Source: Candidatus Magasanikiibacteriota bacterium (GTDB lineage: Bacteria; Patescibacteriota; Patescibacteriia; Magasanikbacterales; UBA922). From it: 45,828 nt of DNA. Below are positions 3,199-30,229 of the stretch, piece by piece. A model generated the notes under the pieces. That model saw only the letters and a program-made list of their open reading frames with translations. It had not been told where the DNA came from and ran no database searches. Positions within the stretch are counted from its first letter, which is position 1. Each line of letters begins with the position of its first letter. The stretch is from assembly GCA_043825135.1 (NCBI GenBank), contig JBDRSF010000010.1, forward strand, positions 1 through 45,828. The letters run 5' to 3'. The translations under genes and the position numbers were made by a program.

Positions 3199-3262
3199 AT
3201 AAAAATAACCGTCAATATTGTGAGAATTCTTTTTTTATTTTTATGCATGTTTTTTATTTTTG

Positions 3263-5491
3263 TTATCTATTTGGATTGACGAGATAGTGAGTAAAACTAG
3301 GGGTTGAGTCAAGTTGGACACATTGTCTTGTGCTACAACCACTGTCTACTGGATCACTGACGTTAGGGTCGCTCCATTTATCGCTATCTACTCCACTGTT
3401 AGGTGTTCCACCGAAGAAATCACAATAATCACAACTACTTTTTAACCATTTAGGATCGGCCCAAGGTGCGCATCCACCCATACTAGCGACACATTGGGCA
3501 TATTGTTTTTTTGTTTCTACCCAGTTCGTGGTATTATAACCATATTTTGCTAATAGTGTTTTTCCTGCCTCAGTCAATTGTCTACCACCTGAAGTTTTTT
3601 CATAACCCGCCCAGTAAGCTATTTGCCAAAAAGAACCACATTTTTTCTCTATTTGATTTGCTTTATCACCCCAGCAAGCACGCATGTCAACATTAGAGCC
3701 TATGCTTTTTGGTTTAGCTCCACCCTGCACAATAACTTCTATATGTGTAACCGCGGTCCCTTCTCCTTTTGGTATGACTTTATTGTAAATATTAATATCA
3801 CCTTTTTGTTTTTCTAGGGTGCGGTCATATAAAGCAATATCGCCTGGTTGTGCACCAGCTTGGCCTTTTTTGAGAATCCAGCCTGCTTTAATTAGGTTAT
3901 TCCTCAATCCGTGGGCACTATTGGTTAGTATTTCTTTTGGACATCCGCTCAATCCCAAAACCCTACTTACAAAATTAGCACAATGGCAAGATCCTTCGCA
4001 GATAGTTTTACTAGCAAAAACACTAGCAATCTCAGTAAGGTTTTTACCACATCCTTTTCCTTGGTATTTGGCTAATTCTGCGTTGATGTCTGCTGAATTT
4101 AAAGGAGTTAATAAAAAGGGGGTATTAGAATCAAAAACCCCACTAGAATAATCAGCACCTAAGGGAACACCTTTAACAGTTTGTACTCTCAAATTTTTAA
4201 ATTCAACCAATTCTGGATTGATATTATAAAGCAACATATAAGATCCGACTGCTAGAAATAATCCAATTAATGATTGCATTATTCTAGTTTGTGATTCTTT
4301 TATTTTTTCAGGACTACCGCCAGACATTGACCATCTAAAACCACTAATAATTATCATCACCACTGCAAAGATAGAGGCGACAACAACTCCATATTTATAT
4401 AGACCAGCTAGGTATTCTCCTAAAAACGGTACTAATATATATTTTTTTTCACCCTCGGTAACTTCAAAATTATCTGTAAAAGATAATCCAGGGATTTTTA
4501 TTTTTATGTTTGGTTTTTGGAGTATTAGTTTTATTTCACTAAAAACTCCAGGAGCACTAACAGAGCCTACTGCTGAGGCAGAAGCAAGTGCCGAAGATCC
4601 GGCAATAGCAGTATTTGCACCACCCTGCAGAGTAGCAGTACCAGAACAGCTATTGTTTTTTAAAAAATCTAAACTACATAATTGTGGTACTTGAGTATGG
4701 TCTTTTCCGTCTACAAGATACACGGTTGTATTGGGTTTTTCCCAAATCTTTTTTGCAATGGTGGCGGCTTTGTTTTTTTCATTATTTGCATAATGTCCGG
4801 CGGCATGAACATCTGAGACATAAGTTATTAATGACCCTCTTTGACTTTCTGGTATATTGGCCTCCTCTAAACATTGATTTCCATAACAACTATCAAAACG
4901 AAGAATTTTTATCACTTTTATATTTGGGTATTTTGCTATGTTTGTGGTTATGTGTGAGGTGGCTGGACCGCCTTGTGAATGTGAAGCAAAAATCGTATTT
5001 TGTGTTACTGTCAGGCCTTTTCCACTAGCTATTGTCAAAAAATCATTATATAGACATTGAAAAAAATCAGCATAATGTTCTGACCAATAAGATTTTGTAT
5101 TTCCTGAGGCTGTAATACCATTTGATTTATTCATTTCCGGACAAAAAATGACAAAATCTTTTCCAGCTGTGTCATTGAGGACACTGGTGGCACTAAATCT
5201 ATTTTCGCAGGCTTTTCTGGGAGCATTACTACTATCGCCGTGTTGGAACCAAATAAGGTCTTTGTTGCCAGTGCTTACTGGATTATAATAAATATTTTGA
5301 GGCAATTGTGGTTTATCTTCTCCAGACCATCCACCTCTTGTATATTCGGTACAATCAGATTGAAAACTTACTTTTTTCATTCCATTGTAAACAGTTTCAG
5401 AGATGGCGCTTGGAGTGGCTTTAGCAGTTTGGGCACTAAAAAGCAATATAAATAATGATAAGAAAAATACTATTTTTTTATTTCTTCTCAT
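3263..5491 (-). CDS. CPR pilin-like domain protein with an N-terminal alpha/beta-hydrolase-like domain and a C-terminal CHAP/NlpC-like domain
   Basis: Signal peptide; ASHSQGG nucleophile elbow; same pilin module (SGGSPEKIK...LLYNINPEL); CANFVSRVL...QPGDIALY...HIEVI; Cys-rich. Confidence 0.65.
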   Translation of the reverse strand: MRRNKKIVFFLSLFILLFSAQTAKATPSAISETVYNGMKKVSFQSDCTEYTRGGWSGEDKPQLPQNIYYNPVSTGNKDLIWFQHGDSSNAPRKACENRFSATSVLNDTAGKDFVIFCPEMNKSNGITASGNTKSYWSEHYADFFQCLYNDFLTIASGKGLTVTQNTIFASHSQGGPATSHITTNIAKYPNIKVIKILRFDSCYGNQCLEEANIPESQRGSLITYVSDVHAAGHYANNEKNKAATIAKKIWEKPNTTVYLVDGKDHTQVPQLCSLDFLKNNSCSGTATLQGGANTAIAGSSALASASAVGSVSAPGVFSEIKLILQKPNIKIKIPGLSFTDNFEVTEGEKKYILVPFLGEYLAGLYKYGVVVASIFAVVMIIISGFRWSMSGGSPEKIKESQTRIMQSLIGLFLAVGSYMLLYNINPELVEFKNLRVQTVKGVPLGADYSSGVFDSNTPFLLTPLNSADINAELAKYQGKGCGKNLTEIASVFASKTICEGSCHCANFVSRVLGLSGCPKEILTNSAHGLRNNLIKAGWILKKGQAGAQPGDIALYDRTLEKQKGDINIYNKVIPKGEGTAVTHIEVIVQGGAKPKSIGSNVDMRACWGDKANQIEKKCGSFWQIAYWAGYEKTSGGRQLTEAGKTLLAKYGYNTTNWVETKKQYAQCVASMGGCAPWADPKWLKSSCDYCDFFGGTPNSGVDSDKWSDPNVSDPVDSGCSTRQCVQLDSTPSFTHYLVNPNR

Positions 5492-6250: not shown

Positions 6251-7469
6251 ATATAGGTATGTTAAATAAACCACTTTGATTTTTGTCAGTAAAGTATAAA
6301 GTTTTATTTTCTCCGAGAATTATCTCGTCTATGACATGATAACCTTCTAATGGTATTTCATTTTTTATGCCAGTTTTGGTATCAATTTTGTATAACTTAT
6401 CATTAACATCATTTAATAAATCTGGTGCTAGTCCAGCCCCCATTTTACTTTCTGATGGTACGGCACAATAAACAAAACGATCATCAGCAAAAGTGCATTT
6501 GTCAGCCCAAGTACTTAGATTTAATAATTTTCTTCCTGAACCAATATTATCACCTTCGGCATTTACAATCCATAATTCAGGCTGAAAATTACTTCTAATA
6601 CTATAAACACTGTAGAGCATTTTTTGTCCAGTTGGTGACCACTGTTCTCTAAAATCTCGTCCTTCTACGATCATGGAGCGGAAGTTTTCACCATGTAGGC
6701 CGACAAATAATATTTCTTCTCGGTCAGATCCTTGGGCTTCGCCAGTTCTGGATAAAGCCACCACTTGTTTGTTTGGCGACCAGTCCACTGTCACTCGATC
6801 GGCATTTTCTCCCATTGGCTCAATTAGACTGACGCTCTTTCCTTTTGGATCAGAAGTTACTAACCAACGATTGTCAGGGGATAGACCAACACTTTTACTA
6901 GCAATTTTGTCTCCTAGAGGAGAAAAAGAAAAGTCTTCCCAATGTTGAGGTAATGTAACTTGTTCGCTAGTGTCAAAATTATAATAAATATTAGATCCAT
7001 CTGGATATTCAATTATGGACTCATCTTTAATTGGCGACCAAGTGACATTTTGGACATTATAAAAAACTTCATCGCTAAGAGTTTTGGGATTGCCACTGGC
7101 ATCAATCTTATAGAATTTACCATCACTCTGATTATAAAAGTTGGCAGTACCACTTTTATTTAGACTAGGATTAATAATAGGTGCAGTTACCATTTGTGTA
7201 ACTGGATAAGGTCTATATTCTTCATATTCTTCGTATTCATCTAAATAAATAATTTCTTCAGCCGATGGTAATGTGCCAGGCACAGGGGTGACGCCCGGAG
7301 TTACTACACCTTCTTCAGCACTTGGCAAAATACCCGGGGTAGTTATTGCTCCTGGTGGTAAGCCAGTTGGTACTTCTTTTTTGGCAAAAAACACACGATA
7401 AAGTAGATAGCCTAAAGCTATGGTAATTATGATAAATATGATAGAAAAAATTAGTCGTTTTTTGTCCAT
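6249..7469 (-). CDS. Membrane-anchored TolB-like/beta-propeller protein
   Basis: N-terminal TM, Pro-rich linker, repeated WSP/FSP motifs (VTWSP, FSFSPLG, VDWSPN, QWSPTG). Confidence 0.7.
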   Translation of the reverse strand: MDKKRLIFSIIFIIITIALGYLLYRVFFAKKEVPTGLPPGAITTPGILPSAEEGVVTPGVTPVPGTLPSAEEIIYLDEYEEYEEYRPYPVTQMVTAPIINPSLNKSGTANFYNQSDGKFYKIDASGNPKTLSDEVFYNVQNVTWSPIKDESIIEYPDGSNIYYNFDTSEQVTLPQHWEDFSFSPLGDKIASKSVGLSPDNRWLVTSDPKGKSVSLIEPMGENADRVTVDWSPNKQVVALSRTGEAQGSDREEILFVGLHGENFRSMIVEGRDFREQWSPTGQKMLYSVYSIRSNFQPELWIVNAEGDNIGSGRKLLNLSTWADKCTFADDRFVYCAVPSESKMGAGLAPDLLNDVNDKLYKIDTKTGIKNEIPLEGYHVIDEIILGENKTLYFTDKNQSGLFNIPI

Positions 7470-8683: not shown

Positions 8684-9007
8684 TTATTTGCTTAGTAATT
8701 TTGAGGCAATTTTTGTGACTGAAAAACAATCATGATAATAATTTTCCAATTCTTTTTCTTGATCTATATTTCTTTGTGATAATAAAAGCTTTAGGAGTCT
8801 GGATCTGGTTTTTATTAATTTTTTTAATATATCTTTGGTAGCTTCTTGATTTTTTTGTTCTAGTGCTTGCCAAAGTTTTTGTTTAAAATAATCAAGTTCT
8901 TCTTTGATTTGTTTTTTTTGTAAATTAGAATTGACTCGGGTGACAACCTGACCCTGTTTAGACTTTTTTATGGTTTTGGCCCACTGTTGTTCAAAATCCT
9001 CGGTCAT
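8684..9007 (-). CDS. Hypothetical helical protein
   Basis: 107-aa ORF overlapping the clpC stop (ATGA coupling) and 1 nt from the next gene. Confidence 0.7.
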   Translation of the reverse strand: MTEDFEQQWAKTIKKSKQGQVVTRVNSNLQKKQIKEELDYFKQKLWQALEQKNQEATKDILKKLIKTRSRLLKLLLSQRNIDQEKELENYYHDCFSVTKIASKLLSK

Positions 9008-11574
9008 ACTAATTTATAAGTATTTTTTACTTTTGATAAAGTATAGTTTTTTTTGTCCCGCCTATGGACGGGATTCCGTCCTTCACAGGCGGAACAATTA
9101 TCTTTTTGCAGTATTTCTATTACCAACTCATGAATAGTATCTCCAATAATTTTTTCTACTTGTCTAGCTCCATAATCTTCATCAAAAGATTCTCGGGTCA
9201 AAGCAGAGATGGCGACAGAATCCGCCTCAAGTTTAATTTTTTCATTGTCAAAGATTGTTTGAGTTATTTGTTGGATATTTTTTTCTACTATTTTTTGTAT
9301 ATCAGATTCAGTTAGAGGATTGAATATTTCTATCGTAGTTAGGCGATTAAGTAAAGCCGGGGATAGTTCTTCTTTTAATTTATGCATTATTGATTCATTC
9401 ATTTCTTTTTTAGCCTGTTTGTCATTTTTACCAAAGCCAATTCCGCTGGATTTGAATAATTCTGCACCAAGATTAGTTGTTAAGATTATGATTGTATGTC
9501 TAAAATCAGTTTTTTTACCGCTACTATCAGTTAAGGTGCCTTCGTCTAGAATTTGCAACAGAAGTTTATTTACATTGTTGTGAGCCTTGTCAACCTCATC
9601 AAACAAAACTACACAATAAGGGCGTTTTCTGATCTCGTCAGTAAAATGATTGCGATCTTTGTGACCAATATAACCAGCTGGCGAACCAAGTAGTTTGGAA
9701 GTGCTGTGGCCTTCGGAAAATTCACTCATATCAAGTTTTATAAGAGCTTTATCATCGTGAAAAAGTTCTTTGGCCAGAACTTTAGCTAGCTCAGTTTTAC
9801 CAACTCCGCTTGGGCCAGCAAAAAGCAAAGAACACAGGGGTTTTTTGCTAGATTGTATTCCTAAATGAGCTTGGCTAATTTTTTTTACCAAATTATTAAT
9901 CACTTTATCTTGGCCTACAATATAATTTTTGAGACGATCATTCAAAGTCTTTAATTCATCCCATTTATTTAATAGCAGTGTTTGCGAGGGAATGTCTAAT
10001 TTATTTTCCAATATTTTGGCAATGTCTTTTTCAGTTACTTTTTTGGCAATTGATTGTGGAGTTTTTTCAATTTGTTTTTGTAGAGAACTTAATTTCTTTT
10101 CAATTTGTTCTATTTTTTTCTTCCAGTCAATGGCTTTTTCAAAATTTTCTTTTGAAATGGCATCTTCTTTGTTGTCATAATAGGCCTCACGTTCGTCTAT
10201 AAGTTTTTGTTTTTTTATTTCAAGTGGTGTGGCCTTGCGAGTGGCTTTGACAGCGGCAGCAGCTTCGTCAATCAAATCAATTGCCTTGTCTGGTAAAAAA
10301 TTACTATGAATATATTTGATGCTCAAATCAACCGCGGTTTTTATGGCTGTCTCAGTAATTTTTACATTATGAAAATCTTCGTAATATTTTTTTATGCCAG
10401 TCAAAATTTTTATAGTATCATCGCGATTAGGCTCTTCAACATAAATACTTTGAAATCTTCTCTCCAGGGCAGGGTCAGAACTCACATGTTTTTTGTATTC
10501 ATCAATGGTGGTTGCTCCAATACAACGGAGTTGACCGCGAGCCAGAGCTGGTTTCAAAATATTGGCAGCATCCATGGCACCCTGGGATGACCCCGCACCA
10601 ATTATATTGTGTAATTCATCAATAAATAAAATATAGTTGGGGTTTTTGGTGATTTCATCTACTACCTGTTTCAAACGTGATTCAAATTCACCACGGTAGA
10701 TTGTTCCGGCAATCATTAGAGTTACATCAAGAGATAGGATTTTTTTATTTTTTAAAATATCTGGAACATCACCTTCACTAATTCTTTTGGCTAGCCCTTC
10801 TACGATAGCAGTTTTGCCTACACCGGGTTCGCCAATTAAAACTGGGTTATTTTTATTACGACGCGATAGAATATTTATTACTCGTTCAATCTCTTTTTCA
10901 CGACCAATGACCGGGTCAATGGCTTTGCTATTTTTTTTGTCAGTTAGGTTGGTGGTAAATAAATCAAGACCAGAAAATTGGGTCTTTTTTTGATTTGTAA
11001 AAGGTAGAGGAGAAGGTGGAAGATTTGTGGGATTTGTCTTACCAATTATATCATCCATTTGTGACATAATATCCTCAACATCTTCAAATTTTGGAAAGTG
11101 ACTAGAACTTTGTAAAACCATTTCAATTTCTTGTTCAATTTCTTTTTTAGAAACTTTAAATTTTTTAAAAATTTCAGCCAGTTCTTCACTTCGGCTCTTT
11201 AATATTCCCAAAAGTAAATGCTCAGTCCCGACAAAATTGTGGCCTTTTTCATAAGCTATTAAAATAGATCTTTCCAAGGCTTGTTTTGATAAAGAATCTA
11301 ATTCTGGAATAACACCGACATCAACTTTGCTGATGTTTCGTCTTAATTTTGCCTTGCTTTCTAATAATTCTGAAGGAAATTTGGTATCAAAACCATTTTT
11401 ATTCAAGATTTCACAAGCAATTGAACCTTTTTCTTCAATTAAAACAATCAAAATATGAATCGGACTAACCATGGGTTGTTCAAAAGCTGTGGCCAAGGCC
11501 ATTGATTTGGCTATGGCATTTCGTAGATGAGTAGAAAAGCGACCTAGCAATTGTTCGGGAGAAAATTCTTTCAT
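9004..11574 (-). CDS. clpC: ATP-dependent Clp protease ATP-binding subunit (ClpC-type)
   Basis: Two Clp_N repeats, GEPGVGKT and GPSGVGKT Walker A motifs, FLPDKAIDLIDEA, short UVR-type middle domain. Confidence 0.92.
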   Translation of the reverse strand: MKEFSPEQLLGRFSTHLRNAIAKSMALATAFEQPMVSPIHILIVLIEEKGSIACEILNKNGFDTKFPSELLESKAKLRRNISKVDVGVIPELDSLSKQALERSILIAYEKGHNFVGTEHLLLGILKSRSEELAEIFKKFKVSKKEIEQEIEMVLQSSSHFPKFEDVEDIMSQMDDIIGKTNPTNLPPSPLPFTNQKKTQFSGLDLFTTNLTDKKNSKAIDPVIGREKEIERVINILSRRNKNNPVLIGEPGVGKTAIVEGLAKRISEGDVPDILKNKKILSLDVTLMIAGTIYRGEFESRLKQVVDEITKNPNYILFIDELHNIIGAGSSQGAMDAANILKPALARGQLRCIGATTIDEYKKHVSSDPALERRFQSIYVEEPNRDDTIKILTGIKKYYEDFHNVKITETAIKTAVDLSIKYIHSNFLPDKAIDLIDEAAAAVKATRKATPLEIKKQKLIDEREAYYDNKEDAISKENFEKAIDWKKKIEQIEKKLSSLQKQIEKTPQSIAKKVTEKDIAKILENKLDIPSQTLLLNKWDELKTLNDRLKNYIVGQDKVINNLVKKISQAHLGIQSSKKPLCSLLFAGPSGVGKTELAKVLAKELFHDDKALIKLDMSEFSEGHSTSKLLGSPAGYIGHKDRNHFTDEIRKRPYCVVLFDEVDKAHNNVNKLLLQILDEGTLTDSSGKKTDFRHTIIILTTNLGAELFKSSGIGFGKNDKQAKKEMNESIMHKLKEELSPALLNRLTTIEIFNPLTESDIQKIVEKNIQQITQTIFDNEKIKLEADSVAISALTRESFDEDYGARQVEKIIGDTIHELVIEILQKDNCSACEGRNPVHRRDKKNYTLSKVKNTYKLV
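9054..9095. repeat. GC-rich palindromic element in-frame in the clpC 3' end
   Basis: gtcccgcct-at-ggacgg-gatt-ccgtcc-ttcac-aggcggaac; related copy at 30445-30483. Confidence 0.7.
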
Positions 11575-13200: not shown

Positions 13201-13929
13201 GTAGGGGCGGGTCTGGACCCGCCATTTGCCAGTATAAAAATTCAAAAATTATTACGATCTCGCCACCATTTGGCGGGATTTTTATTTATATAATTTTGAA
13301 TGGCAAAAAATGATTTTTCATCACGAATTATGTGGTCATAAAATGATCGTTGCCATTTGAAATTTTCAAATCCATTGTGATGGATATATTTGGATGATGT
13401 GGTTTTTAATGCGCCGATTAATTCGGATAATGGTTTGATTTTTATTGCATCGTTTGCCGTAGGGGCGGGTTGCGACCCGCCCTCATTTGCAAATGATACG
13501 TTTGGATATGATTTATTTATTGGTTGCGCGATGGGGACAGGTCGCGACCTGTCCGTACACGATCCGTCAATATGCGACCCGCCCGTGTATGGTTTAATGT
13601 GTGATGAATCAATTTGTATTATCCCATGCACATGGTTCGGCATTACAACAAAATCGTGTAATACAATATACGGATATTGTCCGGCCAGCCATTGCCATTG
13701 TTCCCAGACAATTCGTCCCAATTTATTTATGCACATTATTTCATTGTGAATTCCACCGAAATAATTTATTCGTTCACGGGTATAAAATGTCACAAAATAT
13801 AAACCATCCTGCGAATAATCATATCCCAATAATCGATTCCGTTTACGGTCGTGTAGGGTTTGTTTGATGATTTTCATAAAAAATAGGGCGGGTGGTATAA
13901 AAAAAGGGCGGGTCCAGACCCGCCCCTAC
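13201..13929. mobile_element. REP-flanked Y1 transposase locus (RAYT/REPtron-like)
   Basis: Perfect 23-bp inverted GTAG-headed palindromes GTAGGGGCGGGTCTGGACCCGCC at 13201-13223 and 13907-13929; further REP copies inside the gene. Confidence 0.85.
13242..13877 (-). CDS. REP-associated tyrosine transposase (IS200/Y1 HUH family)
   Basis: RL.GYDYSQ.G.YFVT, MPNHVHGI (HUH), WQRSFYDHIIR, YINKNP catalytic Tyr. Confidence 0.92.
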   Translation of the reverse strand: MKIIKQTLHDRKRNRLLGYDYSQDGLYFVTFYTRERINYFGGIHNEIMCINKLGRIVWEQWQWLAGQYPYIVLHDFVVMPNHVHGIIQIDSSHIKPYTGGSHIDGSCTDRSRPVPIAQPINKSYPNVSFANEGGSQPAPTANDAIKIKPLSELIGALKTTSSKYIHHNGFENFKWQRSFYDHIIRDEKSFFAIQNYINKNPAKWWRDRNNF

Positions 13930-20762: not shown

Positions 20763-23282
20763 ATGTTATTAAGTTACAATTGGCTAAAAAATTACGTTGA
20801 TTTACCAGACTCTCTCTCACCAGAAGAGTTGGCTTTGAAATTGACAATGAGTACTGTTGAAGTTGAGGGTGTAGAAAAACAAGGCAAAGATCTTGAAAAT
20901 ATTGTAGTAGGACTTGTTAAGAAAGCTGAGAAACATCCTGATGCGGACAAATTGCAAGTTTGTACTGTTTACGATGGTGTGGAAGATTATCAAGTTGTTT
21001 GTGGTGGTTCAAATGTGATAGAAGGAATGAAAGTGGCTTTTGGAAAAATTGGTGCCAAAGTAAAGTGGCATGGTGAAGGTGAGCTTATTGAGCTTACTAA
21101 AGCAAAAATTCGTGGAGTAGAATCATTTGGTATGATTTGTGCATCTACTGAGATTGGTTTGGGTGAGATGTTTCCAGTGAAAGATGGGAAAGAAATCTTA
21201 GATTTGAGCTCCCACCACCCCGGCCTAAAGGCCACCCCTCCTCGGGCAGGAGGGGACAATATTGGTATGCCTTTGGCAGAGTTTCTAGGCTTAAATGATG
21301 TCATAATCGATATTGACAATAAATCCATGACGCATCGTCCAGATTTGTGGGGGCATTATGGTATGAGTAGAGAAGTGGCAGTGCTTTATCATAAAGAATT
21401 GGTGGAATATAATCCACCTTTGATTAAAAAAATAAAGAAAGCTGGAGGGACAGGTCGCGACCTGTCCGTACACGACCTGTCCGTACAAGTGCAAGATACA
21501 AAATTATGTCCGCGATATATGGCAGTAGTGATTGATGGGGTGAAGATCGTGCCGTCGCCAGAGTGGATGCAGAAGAAGTTAATTGCGGTTGGTTTGCGTC
21601 CGATTAATAATATTGTTGATATTACTAATTATATTTTGTTTGATCTTGGTCAGCCACTCCATGCTTTTGATAAATCAGCAATCAGCAATCAGCAATCAGC
21701 AGTCACGATTATTGTTAGGCGAGCCAAAAATGGTGAAGAATTTGTCACTCTAGATGATAAAAGCCACAAATTAACGAATGACGATTTGGTAATTGCTGAC
21801 AGTGAAAAAGCCGTGGCTTTGGCTGGGGTGATAGGTGGTTTAAACAGTGAAGTAAAAGATGATACTATAACTATAGTTTTTGAATCAGCTAATTTTGATG
21901 CACTGAATATCAGACGAACAGCGACTCGTTTGGGAATAAGAACTGATTCATCAGCTCGGTTTGAAAAGAGTTTAGATCCAAATAATTGTGAATTAGCTTT
22001 GAAACGTGCGGTTGAATTGACATTAGAGCTATGCCCAAATGCAAAAGTTGTAAGCAATGTTGTTGATGAAGCCAATTTTAATTTGAATCAAGGGCCAATA
22101 GAATTATCATTAGAATTTTTAAATAAAAAGATTGGTGTTGAATTGGAGAAAAAAGAAGTTGTAAAGATTTTGGAATCGCTTGGGTTTGGCATAAAAGAAA
22201 AGAAAGATGTATTATTGGTTGCTATACCAACTTGGCGTGCGACTAAAGATATTTCTATTCCTGAAGATTTAGTTGAAGAAGTCGCTAGAATTTATGGCTA
22301 TGGCAATATTCCAACAGTCTTACCAACTTTTCCAATTACACCACCAGAGAGAAATGAATTAAAGTTGCTGGAGAGAAAAATCAAAAATATATTAAGCTTG
22401 GAATTTGGTTTTAATGAAGTTTATAATTACTCTTTTATTTCACCAAAGTGGATTGAAATATTAGAACTAGATAAGGAAGATTTTATTGAACTAGATAATC
22501 CAATTGCAAAAGACAGACCATATTTGCGCCGAGGTCTGTGGCCAAATTTGTTAGAAAATGTAGAGAAAAATTTACATGAGTTTGATCAAGTAAAAATATT
22601 TGAAATTGGTCAGGTGTTTGATAAGCTTAACCCTGGTCAAAGAGCAAGTGATAATGGTGATGATTTGTTACCAAGGCAAGATTTGATGTTGGGAATGGTG
22701 TTTGCTGGTAAGGGATTTGATAAGCCGTTTTTTGAATTATCATCGGCTATGTCAGGAATTTTAGACCATTTTAATTGCACTTATGAATTAAAAGCTAAGA
22801 GTGAGATGGATGGAGAATTTATTCATCCGGGTCGTATAGCTGAGATAGTAGTTAATGGAGAAGTAATTGGTGCGGTGGCTGAGATACATCCAATTACATT
22901 AAACAAGATTGGCTTGGACGAGAGCACAGCGGTATTAGAAATTAGTTTACAAAAACTAGTAGAGCAAGTATTAGAAAAAAATAATTATCAAAAACTTTCA
23001 GTCTATCCTTCTGTCGAGCGGGATGTGGCTTTTCTAGTAGACAAAAAAATTTCTAATACAGAAATAATTGAGAAGCTAAAAAATATTGATGGATTAGTGA
23101 GAAATGTTGAATTGTTTGATGTTTATGAAGGTGATAAAGTTGGTGCTGGAAAAAAGAGTATGGCTTATCGTATTACATATCGTAGTGATGATAAGACTTT
23201 GGAGTCGGTTGAGGTTGATAAGGTTCACGATAAACTGGTTAAAATATTGGAGAAAGAATTTAGTGCTGAGGTGAGGAAATAA
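20763..23282 (+). CDS. pheT: Phenylalanyl-tRNA synthetase beta subunit, with three repeat-derived in-frame segments
   Basis: HPDADKL, RGVESFGMIC, NNIVDITNY, EDLVEEVARIYGY, C-terminal anticodon-binding domain (RDVAF...LFDVYEG). Confidence 0.97.
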   Translation: MLLSYNWLKNYVDLPDSLSPEELALKLTMSTVEVEGVEKQGKDLENIVVGLVKKAEKHPDADKLQVCTVYDGVEDYQVVCGGSNVIEGMKVAFGKIGAKVKWHGEGELIELTKAKIRGVESFGMICASTEIGLGEMFPVKDGKEILDLSSHHPGLKATPPRAGGDNIGMPLAEFLGLNDVIIDIDNKSMTHRPDLWGHYGMSREVAVLYHKELVEYNPPLIKKIKKAGGTGRDLSVHDLSVQVQDTKLCPRYMAVVIDGVKIVPSPEWMQKKLIAVGLRPINNIVDITNYILFDLGQPLHAFDKSAISNQQSAVTIIVRRAKNGEEFVTLDDKSHKLTNDDLVIADSEKAVALAGVIGGLNSEVKDDTITIVFESANFDALNIRRTATRLGIRTDSSARFEKSLDPNNCELALKRAVELTLELCPNAKVVSNVVDEANFNLNQGPIELSLEFLNKKIGVELEKKEVVKILESLGFGIKEKKDVLLVAIPTWRATKDISIPEDLVEEVARIYGYGNIPTVLPTFPITPPERNELKLLERKIKNILSLEFGFNEVYNYSFISPKWIEILELDKEDFIELDNPIAKDRPYLRRGLWPNLLENVEKNLHEFDQVKIFEIGQVFDKLNPGQRASDNGDDLLPRQDLMLGMVFAGKGFDKPFFELSSAMSGILDHFNCTYELKAKSEMDGEFIHPGRIAEIVVNGEVIGAVAEIHPITLNKIGLDESTAVLEISLQKLVEQVLEKNNYQKLSVYPSVERDVAFLVDKKISNTEIIEKLKNIDGLVRNVELFDVYEGDKVGAGKKSMAYRITYRSDDKTLESVEVDKVHDKLVKILEKEFSAEVRK

Positions 23283-23295
23283 ATAAATATTTTTT

Positions 23296-25782
23296 ATGAA
23301 TGAAGAAAGAAAAATACCAGAGTTGAAAGATGAGGGTGTTTTTTTGGAACCAGTAGAAAAAACCGGTATTTTTTTTGATACATTAGAAAAAATAAAAGCA
23401 TATAAAAAATGGAAAGAAGAGGTTGATCCGGATTTCAGGCATATCGTAGAAGCAAAACTGCAGGGTAAAAAAATAAAAATAGACAAAACAAATAGTCCTT
23501 TGGTTGGGGAGTTTTATGGTAGCTTTCAATTTTTGTTAGCTAATCCTGATTTTGAAGTTGGCGGGTTAGATATTGATAGTCGTGTCAAGAGACAACTTAA
23601 AAATTTACAAAAAGTAAAAATAAATGATCAGGGTGATACTGTAAATATTTTTAAGTTAATGACTAATTCTGATATTGATTTTGTTTTAAAACAAGATTTT
23701 TACAATAAAAAAATAAAAGCACGGGTTGATTGGTTGGAAGCTCAAGATAAAAAAGATGTAGAGAAATATAGTACAAAAAATGAAAAAACAGAGGTTACAG
23801 GAAGTAATGAGGATGATGAGTATGAGCCACATCGTCAAGCCAGCCAAGAACAAGAAGGAGAACCGAGTGAATCAATTGCAACAATCTTTCAATATTTTGG
23901 TGGGTATTACAAAGACGGTGTGTTTCCAAAATTTGATTCGCAAACCTTGAAATGGAGCAAGGATAAAACCACCTTTCAAGAATTACCTGAACAAAAAATT
24001 GATCAAGATAAAAAAAGAATGTATAGGACAGCAGTCAAATCTGGTAAAGTTCAAATAATTAAAATGCCATATAATTGGGCAGTAGATCAAGCAAATGTAA
24101 AATGGAGTGGAGACCAACCTGATGAGTTCAATTTTTTTCAAGACCAAAATGGTCTCAGTTATATAAAAGTTAGGGGAGATGCTGTAGAATATGAATTACA
24201 AATTGATATAGGGCTGACTAAGGATAATTTAGTTGTGGTTGACTCAGATCAGCAAGTTAAAGATGTTGCAGATATTTTTTCAGAAGAATTAAATCAGTTT
24301 ATTATTGATATAAAAACTGCTAGAATTCCAGAAATACAAAAAGCCAGAAAATTAGTTTCTTTTATTCGTTCTCACTTAGAGTATGACAAAGATGATGTGA
24401 GTCTGGATGCTTTTTATAAGCAAGATAGATCACAATATTTTGTAAAAATGTGGGAAAATAAAAAGGCAAAATGTGATGAGGCTAATACCATGGCAGTTCG
24501 TGCTTTAACAAAAGCCGGCTTTAACGCACAGTTGATTTCCGGACATAGTGTACAAGCGAAATCTAAAAAAGGCGAAGCATTGCTTTTGGATAATAATCGC
24601 CATGCTTGGTTGGAGGTTTTGGATAAAGAAAATAACAAATGGGTTCGTTTAGATGCAACTCCAAAAGGAGATCCAAATGTGGATGAAGAAGATCAGGAAG
24701 AGGATTTGGGATTGTCAGAAGGTGATTATAGTGAGCAGAGTGCAGATTTAATGTCTGAAGAAGAAATGGAAAAGATTTTGAAAGAATTGGAAAAAAAAGA
24801 AAAAGAAAAATCACAAAAACCAGAAATAATTTTTGCTAGAGAGGCTGGGTGCACACCAGAAGAAGCAATAAAAGTACTTGATAAAATTAAAGATTTACGA
24901 GAAAAATATAAAAAAGAGCTTGAAAGTTCCAATAATCATTGGAAAAAAGTTTTGCGAAAAAATCTGATAGATGAATTAGAATATAGTGGTCCAGTCAGGC
25001 AGAGTGAGGGTGATGATTTGGATGATCCAGTAGAAGCACGGATTGATGTGCGAGTGGGTGAAGATGATCCAAGTGGATTTGAAAAAGAATTTATAGAGCA
25101 AAAACAAGAAAAAATATTTGGTGGTTATGAAGTATATATTATGGCTGATATGTCTGGTTCTATGGATTGGGATCTAAATGGTATAAAAAAGTCAGAGGCA
25201 CAGAGAGATATGGTATTTTTGTTACTTGATAGTATTATGAGAAGTGCGGTAATGTCACGCAAAGCAGAAAAAAATCTGAAAACTCCTATGCCAAATAAAG
25301 TTTGTTTAGTAGTTTTTGGAGCAAAAACAGAAATTGTCTTACCTGTTACAGACAAATGGGGACCAGCCGAGCAGATAAAGGCGTATAAATCTTTGGATCA
25401 ATCTGCAAATGGCTCAACTCCTGATGACAAAGCTTTGAATATGATAAAAAGACAAATTGAAATAGCTACGGAAGAGGAAGAAAAGAGCAAAAAGAAAGTA
25501 TCAAAAAATAACAAAGATAATTGGAAAATGCATAGGTTTGTGATAGCAACTGCTGATGGCGGTTCGGATAATTATTCGCAGGTAAAATTACTAAATAATG
25601 AATTGCAAAATATGGGAATTCCAGTTGACCTATTTTTGATAAGTGACACAGAAGACGAGAATTTGTTAAAAACAGCCAGACAAACTTATCAAAGTGCAAC
25701 TCAAGTTTCAGATGTGCGTGATTTGGCAGGACAGTGCTTAGATACTTTGACGGATCGGATCAAAGAGGTTTATGGTAAATAG
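23296..25782 (+). CDS. Transglutaminase-like plus von Willebrand factor A domain protein
   Basis: Cys-His-Asp triad motifs AKCDEAN...HAWLEV...WVRLDATP; acidic linker; MIDAS DMSGS, TPD, TADG. Confidence 0.85.
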   Translation: MNEERKIPELKDEGVFLEPVEKTGIFFDTLEKIKAYKKWKEEVDPDFRHIVEAKLQGKKIKIDKTNSPLVGEFYGSFQFLLANPDFEVGGLDIDSRVKRQLKNLQKVKINDQGDTVNIFKLMTNSDIDFVLKQDFYNKKIKARVDWLEAQDKKDVEKYSTKNEKTEVTGSNEDDEYEPHRQASQEQEGEPSESIATIFQYFGGYYKDGVFPKFDSQTLKWSKDKTTFQELPEQKIDQDKKRMYRTAVKSGKVQIIKMPYNWAVDQANVKWSGDQPDEFNFFQDQNGLSYIKVRGDAVEYELQIDIGLTKDNLVVVDSDQQVKDVADIFSEELNQFIIDIKTARIPEIQKARKLVSFIRSHLEYDKDDVSLDAFYKQDRSQYFVKMWENKKAKCDEANTMAVRALTKAGFNAQLISGHSVQAKSKKGEALLLDNNRHAWLEVLDKENNKWVRLDATPKGDPNVDEEDQEEDLGLSEGDYSEQSADLMSEEEMEKILKELEKKEKEKSQKPEIIFAREAGCTPEEAIKVLDKIKDLREKYKKELESSNNHWKKVLRKNLIDELEYSGPVRQSEGDDLDDPVEARIDVRVGEDDPSGFEKEFIEQKQEKIFGGYEVYIMADMSGSMDWDLNGIKKSEAQRDMVFLLLDSIMRSAVMSRKAEKNLKTPMPNKVCLVVFGAKTEIVLPVTDKWGPAEQIKAYKSLDQSANGSTPDDKALNMIKRQIEIATEEEEKSKKKVSKNNKDNWKMHRFVIATADGGSDNYSQVKLLNNELQNMGIPVDLFLISDTEDENLLKTARQTYQSATQVSDVRDLAGQCLDTLTDRIKEVYGK

Positions 25783-25993
25783 AATGTCTTGAAATGTAAT
25801 AGATTCCTCGGGGTTTTACTCAGGGGTAATCCACGTTTACACTAGGAGTGGTCACTTCTGTGAGATCCATACTCTTCACTATATACACAGGATAGATAAA
25901 AAAATTGTATTTTAAAAATATTTTTCTTTCAATACCTCCAGCCTTTGGCTGGGGGATGGAGTACGACTATCGTTTAAAAGATTATTTACTTTA

Positions 25994-26050
25994 TTGACAA
26001 CAAAATATAGATAATGTACAATGGAAGTAAGAGTATTTATTACTTCCATT
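25994..26050 (+). promoter_or_regulatory. sigma70 promoter with overlapping inverted-repeat operator upstream of abiEi
   Basis: TTGACA (25994)-17 bp-TACAAT (26017); AATGGAAGTAA-N9-TTACTTCCATT (26020-26050). Confidence 0.7.
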
Positions 26051-26066
26051 AGACAAAAGTAAAATT

Positions 26067-26636
26067 ATGGATAATTTAATCGCAAAATTATATCAAGTAA
26101 ATAAAACTGTTTTTAGAACTAAAGATCTATCTTTGGTCTGGCAAGAAATAAATTCTAACAATCTTAAAGCTAAAATGACGTACTATGTAAAACGGGGCGA
26201 TTTACTTCGTCTTACTCGAGGTATTTTTGTGTTGAACAAAAAATACAACAAAAGAGAGTTGGCTGGTAGCGTGTATACTCCAAGTTATATTAGTTTTGAA
26301 ACTGTTCTTAGAGATGAAGGTATTATTTTTCAACACTATGATACCATTTTTGTTGCCGGACCTTTTTCAAAAACTACTAATGTAGACGATAATAAAATGG
26401 TTTTTAGAACTTTAAAAAAAATAGTTTTATATAATTCCGCTGGTGTTATAAATAAAAATGGTTTTAGTATTGCTACAAAAGAGAGGGCATTTTTGGATAC
26501 AATTTATTTATTTCCAAATTATTATTTTGATAATCTTAAAAAAATTAATTGGGATAAAGTTTTTGAGCTGGTAAAGATTTATAATAATAAAGAATTAATA
26601 AAACGAGTAAAAAAATATTATTTTTATGCTAAATAA
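26067..26636 (+). CDS. Type IV TA antitoxin, AbiEi-like
   Basis: N-terminal wHTH (LLRLTRGIF), PSYISFETVL, IATKERAFLD; overlaps the AbiEii gene. Confidence 0.8.
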   Translation: MDNLIAKLYQVNKTVFRTKDLSLVWQEINSNNLKAKMTYYVKRGDLLRLTRGIFVLNKKYNKRELAGSVYTPSYISFETVLRDEGIIFQHYDTIFVAGPFSKTTNVDDNKMVFRTLKKIVLYNSAGVINKNGFSIATKERAFLDTIYLFPNYYFDNLKKINWDKVFELVKIYNNKELIKRVKKYYFYAK

Positions 26637-27348
26637 AGAAAAACATGCACTTATAATGGGACAGATTTTGAAAGATATTTATTCTGATATTTTTTTGGCA
26701 TCTTTACTTGGTTTTAAGGGTGGTACCTGCGTGTATTTTTTTTATGATCTGCCACGATTCTCAGTAGATTTGGACTTTGATTTACTGTCTTTTGAAGAAA
26801 ACAAAAGACAAGAAGTTTTTATAAAAATTAAAAATATTTTAGTGAAGTATGGACAAATAAAAGATAGTCATATCAAAGAAAATACAATTTTTTATTTACT
26901 TTCCTATGGGGATAATGATCATAATATTAAAATTGAAATAAGTACAAGAGATTTAATAAAGAATATAAAGGATTTTTACGAATTAAAAGAACATTTGGGG
27001 ACATCATTGTTTATAGCAAAAAAAGATTATATGTTTTCCAGTAAACTGGTTGCACTAATTGGACGTAATAATATTGCTATGCGTGATGTTTATGATATTT
27101 ATTTCTTTGCAAAAAATAACTGGGTTATTAACAGTGAAATTATTTTGTTATGGACAGGCAAAAGTATCGGTGAATACTTATCAGATTGTATGAAAACAAT
27201 AGAAAAAATAAAAGAAAACGAAATTTTGGCTGGATTAGGAGAACTTGTAAATGAAAAAGAAAAAAAATGGATAAAAGAAAGTTTGCGAGAAGAAGTTATT
27301 TTTTTATTAAAAAATTACAAATTCACATTACAAAAAACTAATATATAA
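26626..27348 (+). CDS. Type IV TA toxin, AbiEii/AbiGii nucleotidyltransferase
   Basis: FKGGT, RFSVDLDF, KLVAL..R...RDVYDI. Confidence 0.9.
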   Translation: MLNKEKHALIMGQILKDIYSDIFLASLLGFKGGTCVYFFYDLPRFSVDLDFDLLSFEENKRQEVFIKIKNILVKYGQIKDSHIKENTIFYLLSYGDNDHNIKIEISTRDLIKNIKDFYELKEHLGTSLFIAKKDYMFSSKLVALIGRNNIAMRDVYDIYFFAKNNWVINSEIILLWTGKSIGEYLSDCMKTIEKIKENEILAGLGELVNEKEKKWIKESLREEVIFLLKNYKFTLQKTNI

Positions 27349-27352
27349 AAAT

Positions 27353-30229: not shown

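Follow-up and report, generated by a model that had tools for sequence, protein, structure and literature searches.

A conserved transglutaminase-vWA and AAA-CLec ATPase gene pair from Magasanikbacterales, with an AbiE module between the two genes and a variable tail without an adjacent template

Two large genes and their products

The DNA analysed here (hereafter the window) is a stretch of 45,828 nucleotides from a Candidatus Magasanikiibacteriota bacterium (assembly GCA_043825135.1, contig JBDRSF010000010.1). It contains four co-oriented open reading frames, all on the (+) strand, encoding a transglutaminase-vWA (TGase-vWA) protein of 828 residues (23296–25782), an AbiEi-like antitoxin of 189 residues (26067–26636), an AbiEii nucleotidyltransferase toxin of 240 residues (26626–27348) and an AAA+ ATPase of 958 residues (27353–30229). 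These four genes, with their coordinates and shared orientation, had been described in an earlier note on this DNA and are borne out by the list of open reading frames; likewise, the ATG of the ATPase gene does lie just 3' of the abiEii stop codon, with 4 bases between them (27349–27352). The locus is flanked by the core genes pheT and dnaE, pheT being upstream also in the related loci L093 and L094, and large T4SS pilin-like proteins are encoded at 1489–5491 of the same window. ARAGORN returned nothing over the whole window, and Rfam (E up to 0.1) gave no match on 30000–32100.

The TGase-vWA protein is made up of residues 1–340, to which no fold was assigned, a transglutaminase-like core (residues 345–454; Pfam Transglut_core at 37.2 bits, cut-off 23) and, beyond an acidic linker, a vWA region at about 610–800. 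The triad C393/H436/D453 is invariant in the alignment of 16 homologues (16/16), and from the profile score and this Cys-His-Asp triad the domain is assigned to the transglutaminase-like superfamily, which has a cysteine protease fold. The VWA_2 profile matched residues 613–722 with 20.6 bits, under its gathering cut-off of 27; the predicted vWA domain rests on its MIDAS residues (D618-x-S620-x-S622, T708 and D754), invariant in the same 16 sequences, and on the PF00092 or PF13519 matches precomputed for some homologues. We found 101 homologues of similar length and, where the source was named, it was always of Patescibacteria type.

The ATPase can be divided, by locus comparison and modelling, into an N-terminal extension (residues 1–230; 27353–28042), a segment with the AAA+ core, lid, helical linker and small beta domain (residues 231–704; 28043–29464) and a C-terminal C-type-lectin (CLec) domain (residues 705–958; 29465–30229). 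AAA_5 matched residues 269–407 with 43.6 bits (Pfam cut-off 22), and K279 and T280 of Walker A, D352 and E353 of Walker B, N401 and R409 are invariant in 12/12 sequences. A model of residues 200–720 (pLDDT 90.0), in which residues 200–245 are helical, gave CbbQ2 (6l1q_A, E 1.1e-9) and NorQ (9qh7_E, E 1.6e-9) as its best Foldseek matches; the NorQ matches included 9qh7, 9qh4 and 9qh8 at E about 1e-9, with chains solved together with the NorD vWA domain among them, and dynein, McrB and Rea1 came next in the ranking. The AAA_5 score, the intact motifs and the closest folds identify the core as a MoxR-class AAA+ ATPase of the CbbQ/NorQ group, whose members CbbQ and NorQ work with vWA partners.

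The model of the C-terminal domain (about 250 residues, pLDDT 92.1) found its best VIA-align match in TvpA (2y3c_A; Z 9.5, rmsd 4.1, 171 residues aligned), a Treponema variable protein of a diversity-generating retroelement (DGR), and further matches in FGE-family proteins, Mtd (1yu0, Z 6.1) and TaqVP (5vf4, Z 5.7); Foldseek of the same model against the PDB gave no match at E up to 0.001. As modelled, the domain has a CLec/FGE-type fold, the kind used by Patescibacterial DGR variable proteins. It recurs in 79 genome loci, 41 of which also contain a reverse transcriptase (RT) homologue, and a tblastn search of the own genome with the last 259 residues gave no paralogue. A scan of viral contigs returned one locus, with the CLec domain only, and the family is not phage-borne in the viral collection scanned.

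Both large genes are intact and under purifying selection: dN/dS is 0.09–0.28 outside the variable tail, and 0.14–0.15 for TGase-vWA against L093 and L094. NCBIfam returned nothing useful for the two large proteins and PADLOC nothing for either. Their N-termini are hydrophilic and their 19-residue Kyte-Doolittle means never reach 1.6 (maxima 0.96 and 1.16), a result consistent with the earlier claim that neither has an evident signal peptide and that likewise reveals no membrane span.

A link between the two genes in other genomes had been predicted, and it was found. When 151 genomes of the order were searched, with the N-terminal 700 aa as the ATPase query, TGase-vWA was present in 14 and the ATPase in 12, every ATPase-positive genome also having TGase-vWA; with the own genome set aside, the two genes are no more than 3.5 kb apart on a single contig in 9 of the remaining 11. 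The genomes being related rather than independent, these counts overstate the statistical weight. The linkage follows the form of the ATPase: a TGase-vWA-like ORF is found in 16 of the 21 loci whose ATPase has the N-terminal extension and in 0/27 of those without it, and the extension is confined to ATPase forms having a vWA partner. Nothing like TGase-vWA neighbours the commonest AAA-CLec form (about 700 aa, 27 loci), so that some AAA-CLec proteins must do without a vWA partner. In a further, split form the ATPase is encoded separately, alongside several lectin proteins and a vWA protein.

NorQ-NorD acts in metal insertion and CbbQ-CbbO in Rubisco reactivation, and the pair could be a maturation or repair chaperone of this kind, devoted to one endogenous substrate with the CLec domain as adaptor. 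It shares with them the closest solved folds, a complete and conserved MIDAS on the partner and adjacent genes; its position between pheT and dnaE, and its persistence without any RT in two genomes (G015 and G051), would also suit such a role. Unlike a housekeeping factor, however, the pair occurs in just 12–14 of the 151 genomes, and in 8/8 orthologous loci its tip is rewritten by a mutagenic retroelement, which makes little sense for a fixed substrate. The vWA partner moreover conserves a transglutaminase-like triad, and we know of none in NorD or CbbO. Other differences from these systems are the lack of any phmmer match of either large protein to PDB sequences at E up to 1 and the 230-residue extension and variable lectin carried by the ATPase. 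We regard a chaperone as unlikely; with its patchy distribution and its variable tip, the pair seems more likely to act in conflict, involving phage or host-cell proteins, than in housekeeping.

The variable tail and the diversification cassette

The ATPase gene ends in a tail (the variable region, VR; 30107–30226, residues 919–958) that runs up to the stop codon. Its 120 nt comprise 12 A, 39 C, 45 G and 24 T, that is, a G+C content of 70% compared with about 0.33 in the surrounding window and roughly 33% in the genome, and these base counts show that the VR-like tail noticed earlier is real, being G+C-rich and A-poor. It is colinear with the template repeat (TR) and the VR of the orthologous locus L013.

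The cassette of the relatives has the order TGase-vWA, (small CLec protein), AAA-CLec, (small CLec protein), TR, RT, and TGase-vWA is adjacent in 6/6 orthologous loci having flanking sequence. In all eight orthologous loci (L013–L019 and L047) the TR is located 300–500 nt 3' of the VR, and TR/VR mismatches fall almost only at A (for example 19/21, 14/15 and 19/19). The TR of the relatives rewrites the tails at adenine positions, and the C-terminal domain, CLec-like by its fold match, is DGR-variable across the family, as had been anticipated. The RT adjoins the ATPase gene in 7 of the 10 genomes examined; the other three have the pair without an adjacent RT, G015 and G051 being those devoid of any RT match. 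Since the pair is kept without an RT it can work without diversification, and this weakens a reading as immunity by diversification.

When the window was compared with its nearest relative, L092, the VR differed at 15 of 120 nt, 14 of these 15 being at sites that are adenine in the L013 TR (36 positions of the tail), and the 360 nt upstream of the VR differed at 56. The VR has a dN/dS of 2.48 and a dS of 0.066 against L092, while dS elsewhere in the ATPase gene is 0.2–0.65. The concentration of differences at template-adenine sites indicates that diversification was recent and was then lost.

Neither a TR nor an RT was found in the window by repeat search and similarity search; the repeat search yielded no TR/VR-like direct repeat, its families consisting of AT-rich chance matches and short palindromic elements. 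Within the whole assembly (1.17 Mb in 77 contigs, estimated completeness 99.85%) BLAST gave no TR for the tail, and the best non-self score of a TR scan allowing A at any position was 101/120, with just 23–36 identities. The RTs of this genome lie on other contigs (C1, C28 and C32) and are 42–49% identical to the L013 RT, whereas the RTs of L013 and L094 are 62.6% identical to each other. Two candidates were tried and rejected. The TRs of contigs C32 and C56 scored 16–28 as template for the tail, to be compared with a shuffle mean of 16.2 and maximum of 24; the small RT contig C1, considered as the missing cassette, has its own AAC-rich TR-like segment unrelated to the VR, and its RT is 45% identical to that of L013.

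Downstream of the VR, a conserved spacer with CACTTGG-type repeats (30230–30430, + strand) includes a block homologous to L013 3035–3084. Homology to L013 stops at 30423, before the L013 TR, and homology to the relatives overall at about 30423–30440. At the sister locus L092 an RT fragment of about 60 aa remains. On balance, and as one part of the overall explanation given below, we consider that TR and RT have probably been deleted from the locus in this genome and that the VR is frozen. The earlier statement that the binding domain is DGR-diversified is thus right for the family but not for its present state here, where TR and cognate RT are both missing from the assembly. A deletion inherited by the window and L092 from a common ancestor was considered and rejected, as the junctions differ and the VRs diverged at A sites after the split: in L092 the spacer is joined to about RT codon 124, and in the window about 20 more spacer bases are present and no RT. 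Judging from these junctions, independent losses in the two lineages fit better than one shared deletion.

It could be, on the other hand, that the module is still hypervariable, with a TR and an RT located elsewhere in unassembled sequence and acting in trans. The low dS of the VR would then reflect recent writing, and the 77 contigs leave places for a template, as a contig end truncates the C28 RT and the upstream region, the usual place of a TR, is missing. Remote targets are known in this genome (a TR on C56 has its VR on C46), and one Logan contig of the probable source run, with a depth like that of the main contig, joins 30090 to 30284 with unknown letters between, a weak joint whose shorter side is 21 letters. 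Yet the TR and RT of the relatives are directly downstream, precisely where the window has a clean homology break and L092 a decayed RT; no RT of the genome is closer than 49% to the cognate lineage, and the estimated completeness is very high. Action in trans is in our view improbable, and deletion in place is the reading that we retain.

In the probable source run, one Logan contig is identical over 25500–30548, and the smaller-share runs X2–X4 gave short matching pieces only; rare VR variants are not visible in contigs of this type. Several further Logan-contig joints have sides of 21–41 letters.

The AbiE pair

The segment between the two large genes begins with a part (25783–26066, + strand) that contains a small, G+C-rich hairpin repeat; upstream of abiEi it also has TTGACA-17-TACAAT (25994–26022), the region's best match to a sigma-70 site. 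This site has 11/12 consensus matches, and is a consensus match only; it is conserved in L092. PADLOC recognised AbiEi (E 3.7e-53) and AbiEii (E 1.3e-69), and AbiEii also has a Pfam match (E 2e-19). The abiEi product had no Pfam match, and scored 35.2 bits with NCBIfam TAA_AbiEi, below the cut-off of 150. By gene order and profile matches the two genes, which overlap by 11 nt, are identified as an AbiE type IV toxin-antitoxin pair. Homologues of both proteins, the usual order and the overlap make the pair itself ordinary; only its position inside a DGR-target cassette is not.

The earlier note had described AbiE as embedded in the module; it is not a core component. The segment is absent in L093 and L094, where the spacer is about 80 nt, and there is no AbiE between the large genes either in L015–L019, with TGase-vWA upstream of the ATPase gene, or in L047, where the order is AAA - RT - TGase-vWA. 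Between the window and L092 the AbiE proteins are 96–99% identical while the flanking ATPase is 82% identical, which points to a recent insertion. From this comparison AbiEi/AbiEii appears as an insertion common only to the window and L092, and would be an independent addiction or abortive-infection module that landed in the locus. Transcription of the ATPase gene probably now starts from the AbiE cassette or is shared with it.

A closer tie can be envisaged, in which AbiE is a working part, forming one operon with the ATPase in a composite abortive-infection device where regulation runs from the variable sensor to the toxin or the other way round. The 4-nt gap between abiEii and the ATPase gene, where we found no strong promoter-like site, is what one would expect of it, and L092 has the same arrangement; an AbiE pair 56–65% identical directly follows the RT in L013, and another AbiE is near the AAA-CLec gene in L059. 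The lack of AbiE between the two genes in L093, L094, L015–L019 and L047 and the contrasting identities noted above are against it, as are the presence of an AbiEii homologue in just 2 of the 79 genome loci and the local G+C, which falls to 0.26–0.29 over the AbiE segment (0.256–0.289 in abiEii). The genome has four AbiEii matches, the locus copy included, so that chance adjacency is plausible. We hold a composite device to be quite improbable, and keep to AbiE as an insertion.

A putative two-protein machine and its place among known systems

Our best explanation, which we judge somewhat probable as a whole, is that of a conserved Patescibacterial (CPR) gene pair whose DGR was deleted here, whose spacer of about 80 nt received AbiE and whose tail is frozen, the two proteins working as a cytoplasmic motor mechanism. 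The ATPase would form a MoxR-type hexamer displaying six CLec heads, and these would bind a ligand whose identity was DGR-tuned. The vWA-MIDAS of the partner would dock on the ATPase, most likely via the N-terminal extension, and ATP-driven remodelling would either pass the captured protein on to the transglutaminase-like cysteine enzyme or activate that enzyme, all steps taking place in the cytoplasm. Ligand, oligomeric state, protein-protein contact and transglutaminase chemistry are here inferred. That the proteins are instead extracellular, exported by a non-classical route, with the variable lectin as an adhesin for epibiont-host attachment, is very unlikely. In its favour, other DGRs have variable CLec proteins that sit on surfaces or bind receptors, Mtd and TvpA being among the fold matches, and T4SS pilin-like proteins are encoded in the window. 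Against it, neither protein has a signal-peptide-like or membrane-span-like segment, and the lectin is part of the same polypeptide as an ATPase whose Walker motifs are intact and which needs cytoplasmic ATP; published surveys also note that transmembrane and other recognisable domains are typically missing from CPR targets (PMC8144416).

A bolder version of the cytoplasmic motor can be put forward only tentatively, and we think it doubtful. Long-form AAA-CLec and TGase-vWA might constitute a DGR-programmable two-component cytoplasmic immune machine, widespread in CPR, in which six rewritable heads capture phage- or host-derived proteins, the vWA domain docks on the extension and the transglutaminase-like enzyme cleaves or crosslinks the target. 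Lineages such as this one might then have fixed a useful specificity and discarded the mutator, independently in two sister lineages after entry of the toxin-antitoxin pair. The immune sensor-effector reading of the earlier note, which would resemble adaptive immunity, is likewise hypothetical here, and its concept has already been published for DGR-diversified MoxR-vWA systems (PMC7159879, PMC10907252).

An antigen sensor-transducer-effector logic has been proposed for ternary vWA-MoxR systems with DGR-diversified FGS/CLec domains (VMAP systems; Kaur et al. 2020, PMC7159879; Dore et al. 2024, PMC10907252), and transglutaminase-like peptidases are VMAP effectors "on rare occasions". Like the locus described here, such a locus combines a MoxR-class ATPase and a vWA protein with an effector of peptidase type and a lectin made variable by a DGR; the lectin, however, is usually fused there to the vWA protein and here to the ATPase, and the effector, there on a third protein (VMAP), is here on the vWA protein, two genes standing for three. 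In our cassette maps no third large conserved gene recurs. VMAP systems are enriched in multicellular bacteria with RT clade 5, and the RTs of CPR form a separate clade (PMC10907252, PMC8144416).

AAA-ATPase-fused CLec DGR targets are known in CPR (Paul et al. 2017, as related in PMC10907252), and Wu et al. 2018 (PMC5758913) report that "UVR4" targets match the Midasin AAA domain. The ATPase described here comes from the same phylum-level group as the CPR targets and shares their architecture: the AAA+ domain precedes a variable CLec domain that closes the protein, the VR occupies the extreme 3' end of the gene, and the orthologues have TR and RT downstream; it differs in that the copy in the window is without TR or RT. 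A TGase-vWA partner, long and short forms and orphaned copies are not mentioned in the accessible text of the published accounts. Within the literature open to our search, no paper linking a transglutaminase-vWA protein to CPR DGR targets was found. AAA-CLec targets in CPR and the MoxR-vWA immunity concept are not new, but the TGase-vWA partner, like its association with the extension at the N-terminus of the ATPase, appears to be undescribed in the searchable literature.

DGRs are over-represented in CPR bacteria, and we know of no role established for their cytoplasmic ATPase-fused targets. One major class of them is always accompanied by a transglutaminase-vWA protein, and this linkage tracks the N-terminal extension. 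The pair is thereby a well-defined system of two proteins, open to expression and testing, and it would connect the DGRs of CPR in mechanism with the MoxR-vWA conflict systems of multicellular bacteria. The orphaned copy described here would offer a natural comparison between programmable and frozen versions of the same machine.

Gene block between pheT and dnaE

Four ORFs sharing one orientation lie between pheT (20763-23282), which flanks them on the TGase-vWA side, and dnaE (31926-36695), on the AAA-CLec side. They encode the TGase-vWA protein (23296-25782, plus strand, 828 aa), AbiEi (26067-26636, plus strand, 189 aa), AbiEii (26626-27348, plus strand, 240 aa) and AAA-CLec, an ATPase with a C-terminal lectin-fold domain (27353-30229, plus strand, 958 aa). 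The earlier note had described this four-gene module, and both the observation and its domain calls for all four genes were confirmed by Pfam, PADLOC and alignments. Within a genome of 1.17 Mb in 77 contigs (estimated completeness 99.85%), the window is contig C10, with a G+C of about 0.33; the closest named relatives of the studied genes are Magasanikbacteria and other Patescibacteria MAGs. The window's gene content is typical for Patescibacteria (CPR), with a dockerin-like protein, giant proteins resembling T4SS pilins and a dnaE that bears an intein. The DnaE protein (DNA polymerase III alpha, 1589 aa) contains an intein (Intein_splicing, residues 765-1178) with a LAGLIDADG homing-endonuclease domain (LAGLIDADG_3, residues 956-1038). 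On the minus strand, at 1489-5491, two large ORFs of 569 and 742 aa show weak T4SS_pilin similarity and adjoin a DsbA-like thioredoxin and a ClpB-like ATPase. The genome has 11 copies of a short palindromic element rich in G+C (core GGACAGGTCG); one, inserted in frame in pheT at 21447-21496, makes this gene product about 10 residues longer than that of L093, a metagenome contig from a near relative; a copy 94% identical lies at 13534-13568, within a minus-strand ORF (13242-13877) weakly similar to an IS200-like Y1 transposase.

Looking at the two large proteins, we found in TGase-vWA a Transglut_core domain whose C393, H436 and D453 are invariant among homologues, and a vWA domain with a complete and invariant MIDAS motif, although its Pfam VWA_2 score is under the gathering cut-off. 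The ATPase is of the AAA_5 type, with Walker A, Walker B, sensor and arginine residues intact. Inspection of both sequences revealed neither a hydrophobic N-terminus nor a segment resembling a membrane span, in agreement with the earlier suggestion that there is no evident signal peptide.

The last 279 residues of the ATPase protein were modelled from a 40-sequence alignment (pLDDT 92.1) and compared with 48,161 PDB representatives. The best match was the variable protein TvpA of a diversity-generating retroelement (DGR) (2y3c_A, Z 9.5, rmsd 4.1, 171 residues aligned); the FGE-family proteins CarF, PvdO, EgtB/SenA and an FGE paralogue were also matched, as were Mtd (Z 6.1), TaqVP (Z 5.7) and numerous animal C-type lectins. 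Foldseek alone gave no match for this model at E up to 0.001. Given the TvpA, FGE-family, Mtd and TaqVP matches, the C-terminal domain is CLec/FGE-like, as had been guessed from the sequence. For residues 200-720 (pLDDT 90.0) the closest solved fold was CbbQ2 (6l1q_A, E 1.1e-9), about equally close being NorQ (E about 1e-9), some of its matched chains coming from structures that also contain the NorD vWA domain, followed by dynein, McrB and Rea1. The label MoxR-like is thus correct, if taken to mean the CbbQ/NorQ group within the MoxR class. To our knowledge, all solved members of this group use a vWA/MIDAS partner.

The paired genes and the N-terminal extension in relatives

When one genome of each prokaryotic species was scanned with profile guidance, the C-terminal domain was found encoded at 79 loci, the named ones being nearly all Patescibacteria. 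A DGR-type reverse transcriptase (RT) homologue was present at 41 of the 79 and an A/T-biased pair of template repeat (TR) and variable region (VR) at 42; the VR lay at the end of the CLec domain at 36. Full-length orthologues of the 958-aa ATPase were found at 8 loci (L013-L019 and L047), in all of which a TR lies 300-500 nt 3' of the AAA-CLec gene and the VR mismatches fall almost only at adenines. The usual cassette order on the ORF maps is TGase-vWA, small CLec protein, AAA-CLec, sometimes a further small CLec protein, TR and RT; at L047 it is AAA-CLec, TR, RT, TGase-vWA. All six orthologous loci with flanking sequence contain TGase-vWA, while at L013 and L014 the contig ends directly at the ATPase gene.

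Across the order to which the window belongs, 151 genomes, including its own, were searched. TGase-vWA was found in 14 and the N-terminal 700 residues of the ATPase in 12, all 12 within those 14. In 9 of the 11 genomes other than our own, both matches were on one contig and at most 3.5 kb apart; in the other two they were on separate contigs of fragmented assemblies. Of 10 genomes examined, 7 have an RT next to the ATPase gene, and two genomes with the pair (G015 and G051) gave zero RT matches. Among 2.9 million viral contigs, one encoded the CLec domain and none the ATPase.

We then surveyed the forms of the ATPase with profile HMMs built from our own alignments, run on every ORF of 82 loci (L013-L094), an N-terminal extension being counted as present when the profile start was 92 or less. 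An AAA core ORF was found at 48 loci, 21 of them with the extension, and 16 of these 21 have a TGase-vWA-like ORF. Four of the five partnerless ones (L013, L014, L088 and L092) lost the partner side at the contig or locus end, and the L092 locus starts within the partner gene, whose 3' end is still visible; L038 has no such explanation. At 27 loci the AAA core belongs to the common AAA-CLec form (about 700 aa), which has no extension, and the scan found a TGase-vWA-like neighbour at none of them. A split form occurs at L081, L083, L084, L086 and L090, in Yanofskybacteria and other Patescibacteria, and partly at L078: the ATPase, of about 560 aa, has the extension without the lectin, alongside it stand two to four CLec proteins, separate and 270-280 aa long, and the vWA protein, about 662 aa long, lacks the transglutaminase core and matches the profile in its other parts. 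The vWA partner thus tracks the N-terminal extension and not the lectin, across loci that are kin and not independent samples. From this we infer, for these related loci, that the extension is the docking site for the vWA partner.

The variable tail, the lost DGR and the inserted AbiE genes

The ATPase gene closes with 120 nt (30107-30226) that run right up to the stop codon and are 70% G+C (A 12, C 39, G 45, T 24). Their product has a framework fixed among homologues, RSSxGxLVxVGxFxAGGxxVxxWxPDxRxxxLGVSFSR, between whose residues positions vary even in near-identical proteins (compare P0001 with P0005 and P0010 with P0012). We compared this VR with that of L092, one of three metagenome contigs recovered from nearest relatives (L092, L093 and L094). 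Of 15 differences in 120 nt, 14 fall on the 36 positions that are adenine in the L013 TR and one on the remaining 84; the 360 nt upstream hold 56. The dN/dS of the VR is 2.48 (dS 0.066), against 0.09-0.28 (dS 0.2-0.65) across the rest of the ATPase gene, and that of TGase-vWA is 0.14-0.15 relative to L093 and L094. On our reading of these sequences, the tail was probably rewritten by a DGR after the window and L092 lineages parted, and both large genes have stayed under purifying selection. In X1, the probable source run, one Logan contig leads from 30090 to 30284 across unknown letters and leaves out the VR (depth 15.6, compare with 15.1 for the main contig; shorter side only 21 letters); this may be either an artefact or another path through the VR.

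The earlier note had called the module hypervariable. This does not hold for the window's copy now: BLAST (word size 7) found no TR for 30107-30226 in the assembly, and a scan allowing the VR base or A everywhere gave at best a non-self score of 101/120; the true identities numbered only 23-36, and every match of this kind lay in A-rich DNA. Past the ATPase stop, homology of the window with L013 runs as far as 30287 and resumes at 30373-30423 (L013 3035-3084, about 65 nt before the L013 TR); beyond 30423 it shows no similarity to the L013 TR or RT. The window's copy is, judged from sequence, a frozen derivative that has lost its DGR.

At least two other DGR TR/VR pairs exist in this genome, one on C32 (TR 6881-6999, VR 6397-6515, 10 of 12 mismatches at A) and one with its TR on C56 (13029-13150) and its VR on C46 (15296-15417; 13 of 13 mismatches at A, TR-sense strand). 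These TRs were considered as templates for the tail and rejected, being unrelated to it. The RTs of the genome, on C1, C28 and C32, are 42-49% identical to that of L013; L013 and L094 RTs are 62.6% identical over a 123-residue fragment. The C32 RT is split over two frames. C1 (2.8 kb) holds a complete RT and an AAC-rich TR-like segment (about 400-560), for which no VR was found.

In L093 and L094 the order is pheT, TGase-vWA, AAA-CLec, with an ATPase 72-74% identical to the window's and a spacer of about 80 nt between the two large genes. About 300 nt after AAA-CLec, L094 has the beginning of an RT, its N-terminal part. The order in L092 is the end of TGase-vWA, AbiEi, AbiEii, AAA-CLec and a piece of an RT, some 60 residues long and equivalent to residues 124-182 in the L013 RT open frame, with identities to the window of 82% (ATPase), 96% (AbiEi) and 99% (AbiEii); no TR was found in L092. 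There the spacer joins straight to about RT codon 124, and the window has at its junction about 20 more spacer bases and no RT. We read these different deletion junctions as probable independent losses of TR and RT in the two lineages, after the tail was rewritten. AbiEi and AbiEii are embedded as the earlier note had said, but they are apparently a passenger and not part of the system, being absent between the two large genes in L093 and L094. Since the window and L092 share them, they would have entered the spacer in the common ancestor of these two or spread between them. The best promoter-like site of the region (25994-26022) arrived with AbiE.

AbiEi/AbiEii pairs, 56-65% identical to the window's, also lie right after the DGR RT of L013 (4772-6050) and a few kb from the AAA-CLec gene of L059, a Saccharibacteria contig (2989-4246); the association with such loci may be recurrent or chance. 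At the end of L093, 3' of the ATPase gene (about 8880-9015), the contig repeats its own TGase-vWA 3' end, either a tandem duplication or an assembly wrap-around. Immediately right of the window's deletion junction, a G+C-rich repeat able to form a hairpin (about 30440-30485) is followed by a tandem (GGAATAA)n run (about 30520-30560). Contig depth at 30428-30651 is 208 in X1 and 891 in X4, another run, against 15-20 on either side, which suggests a multi-copy repeat shared between organisms.

Known systems and proposed working

Of the published accounts, Dore et al. (2024, PMC10907252) cite Paul et al. on ATPase-fused CLec targets of CPR bacteria and suggest the ATPase as a transducer, Wu et al. 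(2018, PMC5758913) match the CPR UVR4 targets to a Midasin AAA domain, and Roux et al. (2021, PMC8144416) describe CPR targets as typically without recognisable domains. In the vWA-MoxR-VMAP ternary conflict systems of Kaur et al. (2020, PMC7159879), unlike here, the DGR-diversified FGS/CLec domain is usually on the vWA protein, and the effectors are peptidases and rarely transglutaminase-like. From these accounts, both the AAA-CLec target and the antigen-sensor idea are already known. The immune-module interpretation is partly supported: the pair exists and is conserved, with a DGR link in relatives, but the window's copy is a frozen derivative, AbiE is apparently a passenger, and the immune function is putative and as an idea not new. 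A full-text literature search, Paul et al. 2017 aside, found neither the TGase-vWA partner of CPR AAA-CLec proteins nor its tie to the N-terminal extension, and neither the split form nor orphaned copies with an inserted AbiE; we provisionally regard all of these as new.

By analogy with CbbQ-CbbO, NorQ-NorD and the published logic of DGR-diversified vWA-MoxR systems, the ATPase would form a hexamer with six lectin heads binding a ligand picked by diversification, which might be a phage protein, a host-cell protein or another. The vWA/MIDAS partner would bind the ATPase ring, probably through the N-terminal extension, and ATP hydrolysis would either activate the transglutaminase-like cysteine enzyme or make the bound protein accessible to it, by delivery or exposure. 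Four observations make a role in conflict more likely than a housekeeping one: the two proteins both look cytoplasmic, their occurrence is patchy, in 12-14 of 151 genomes, a mutator rewrites the tip, and the cassette draws in a toxin-antitoxin module.
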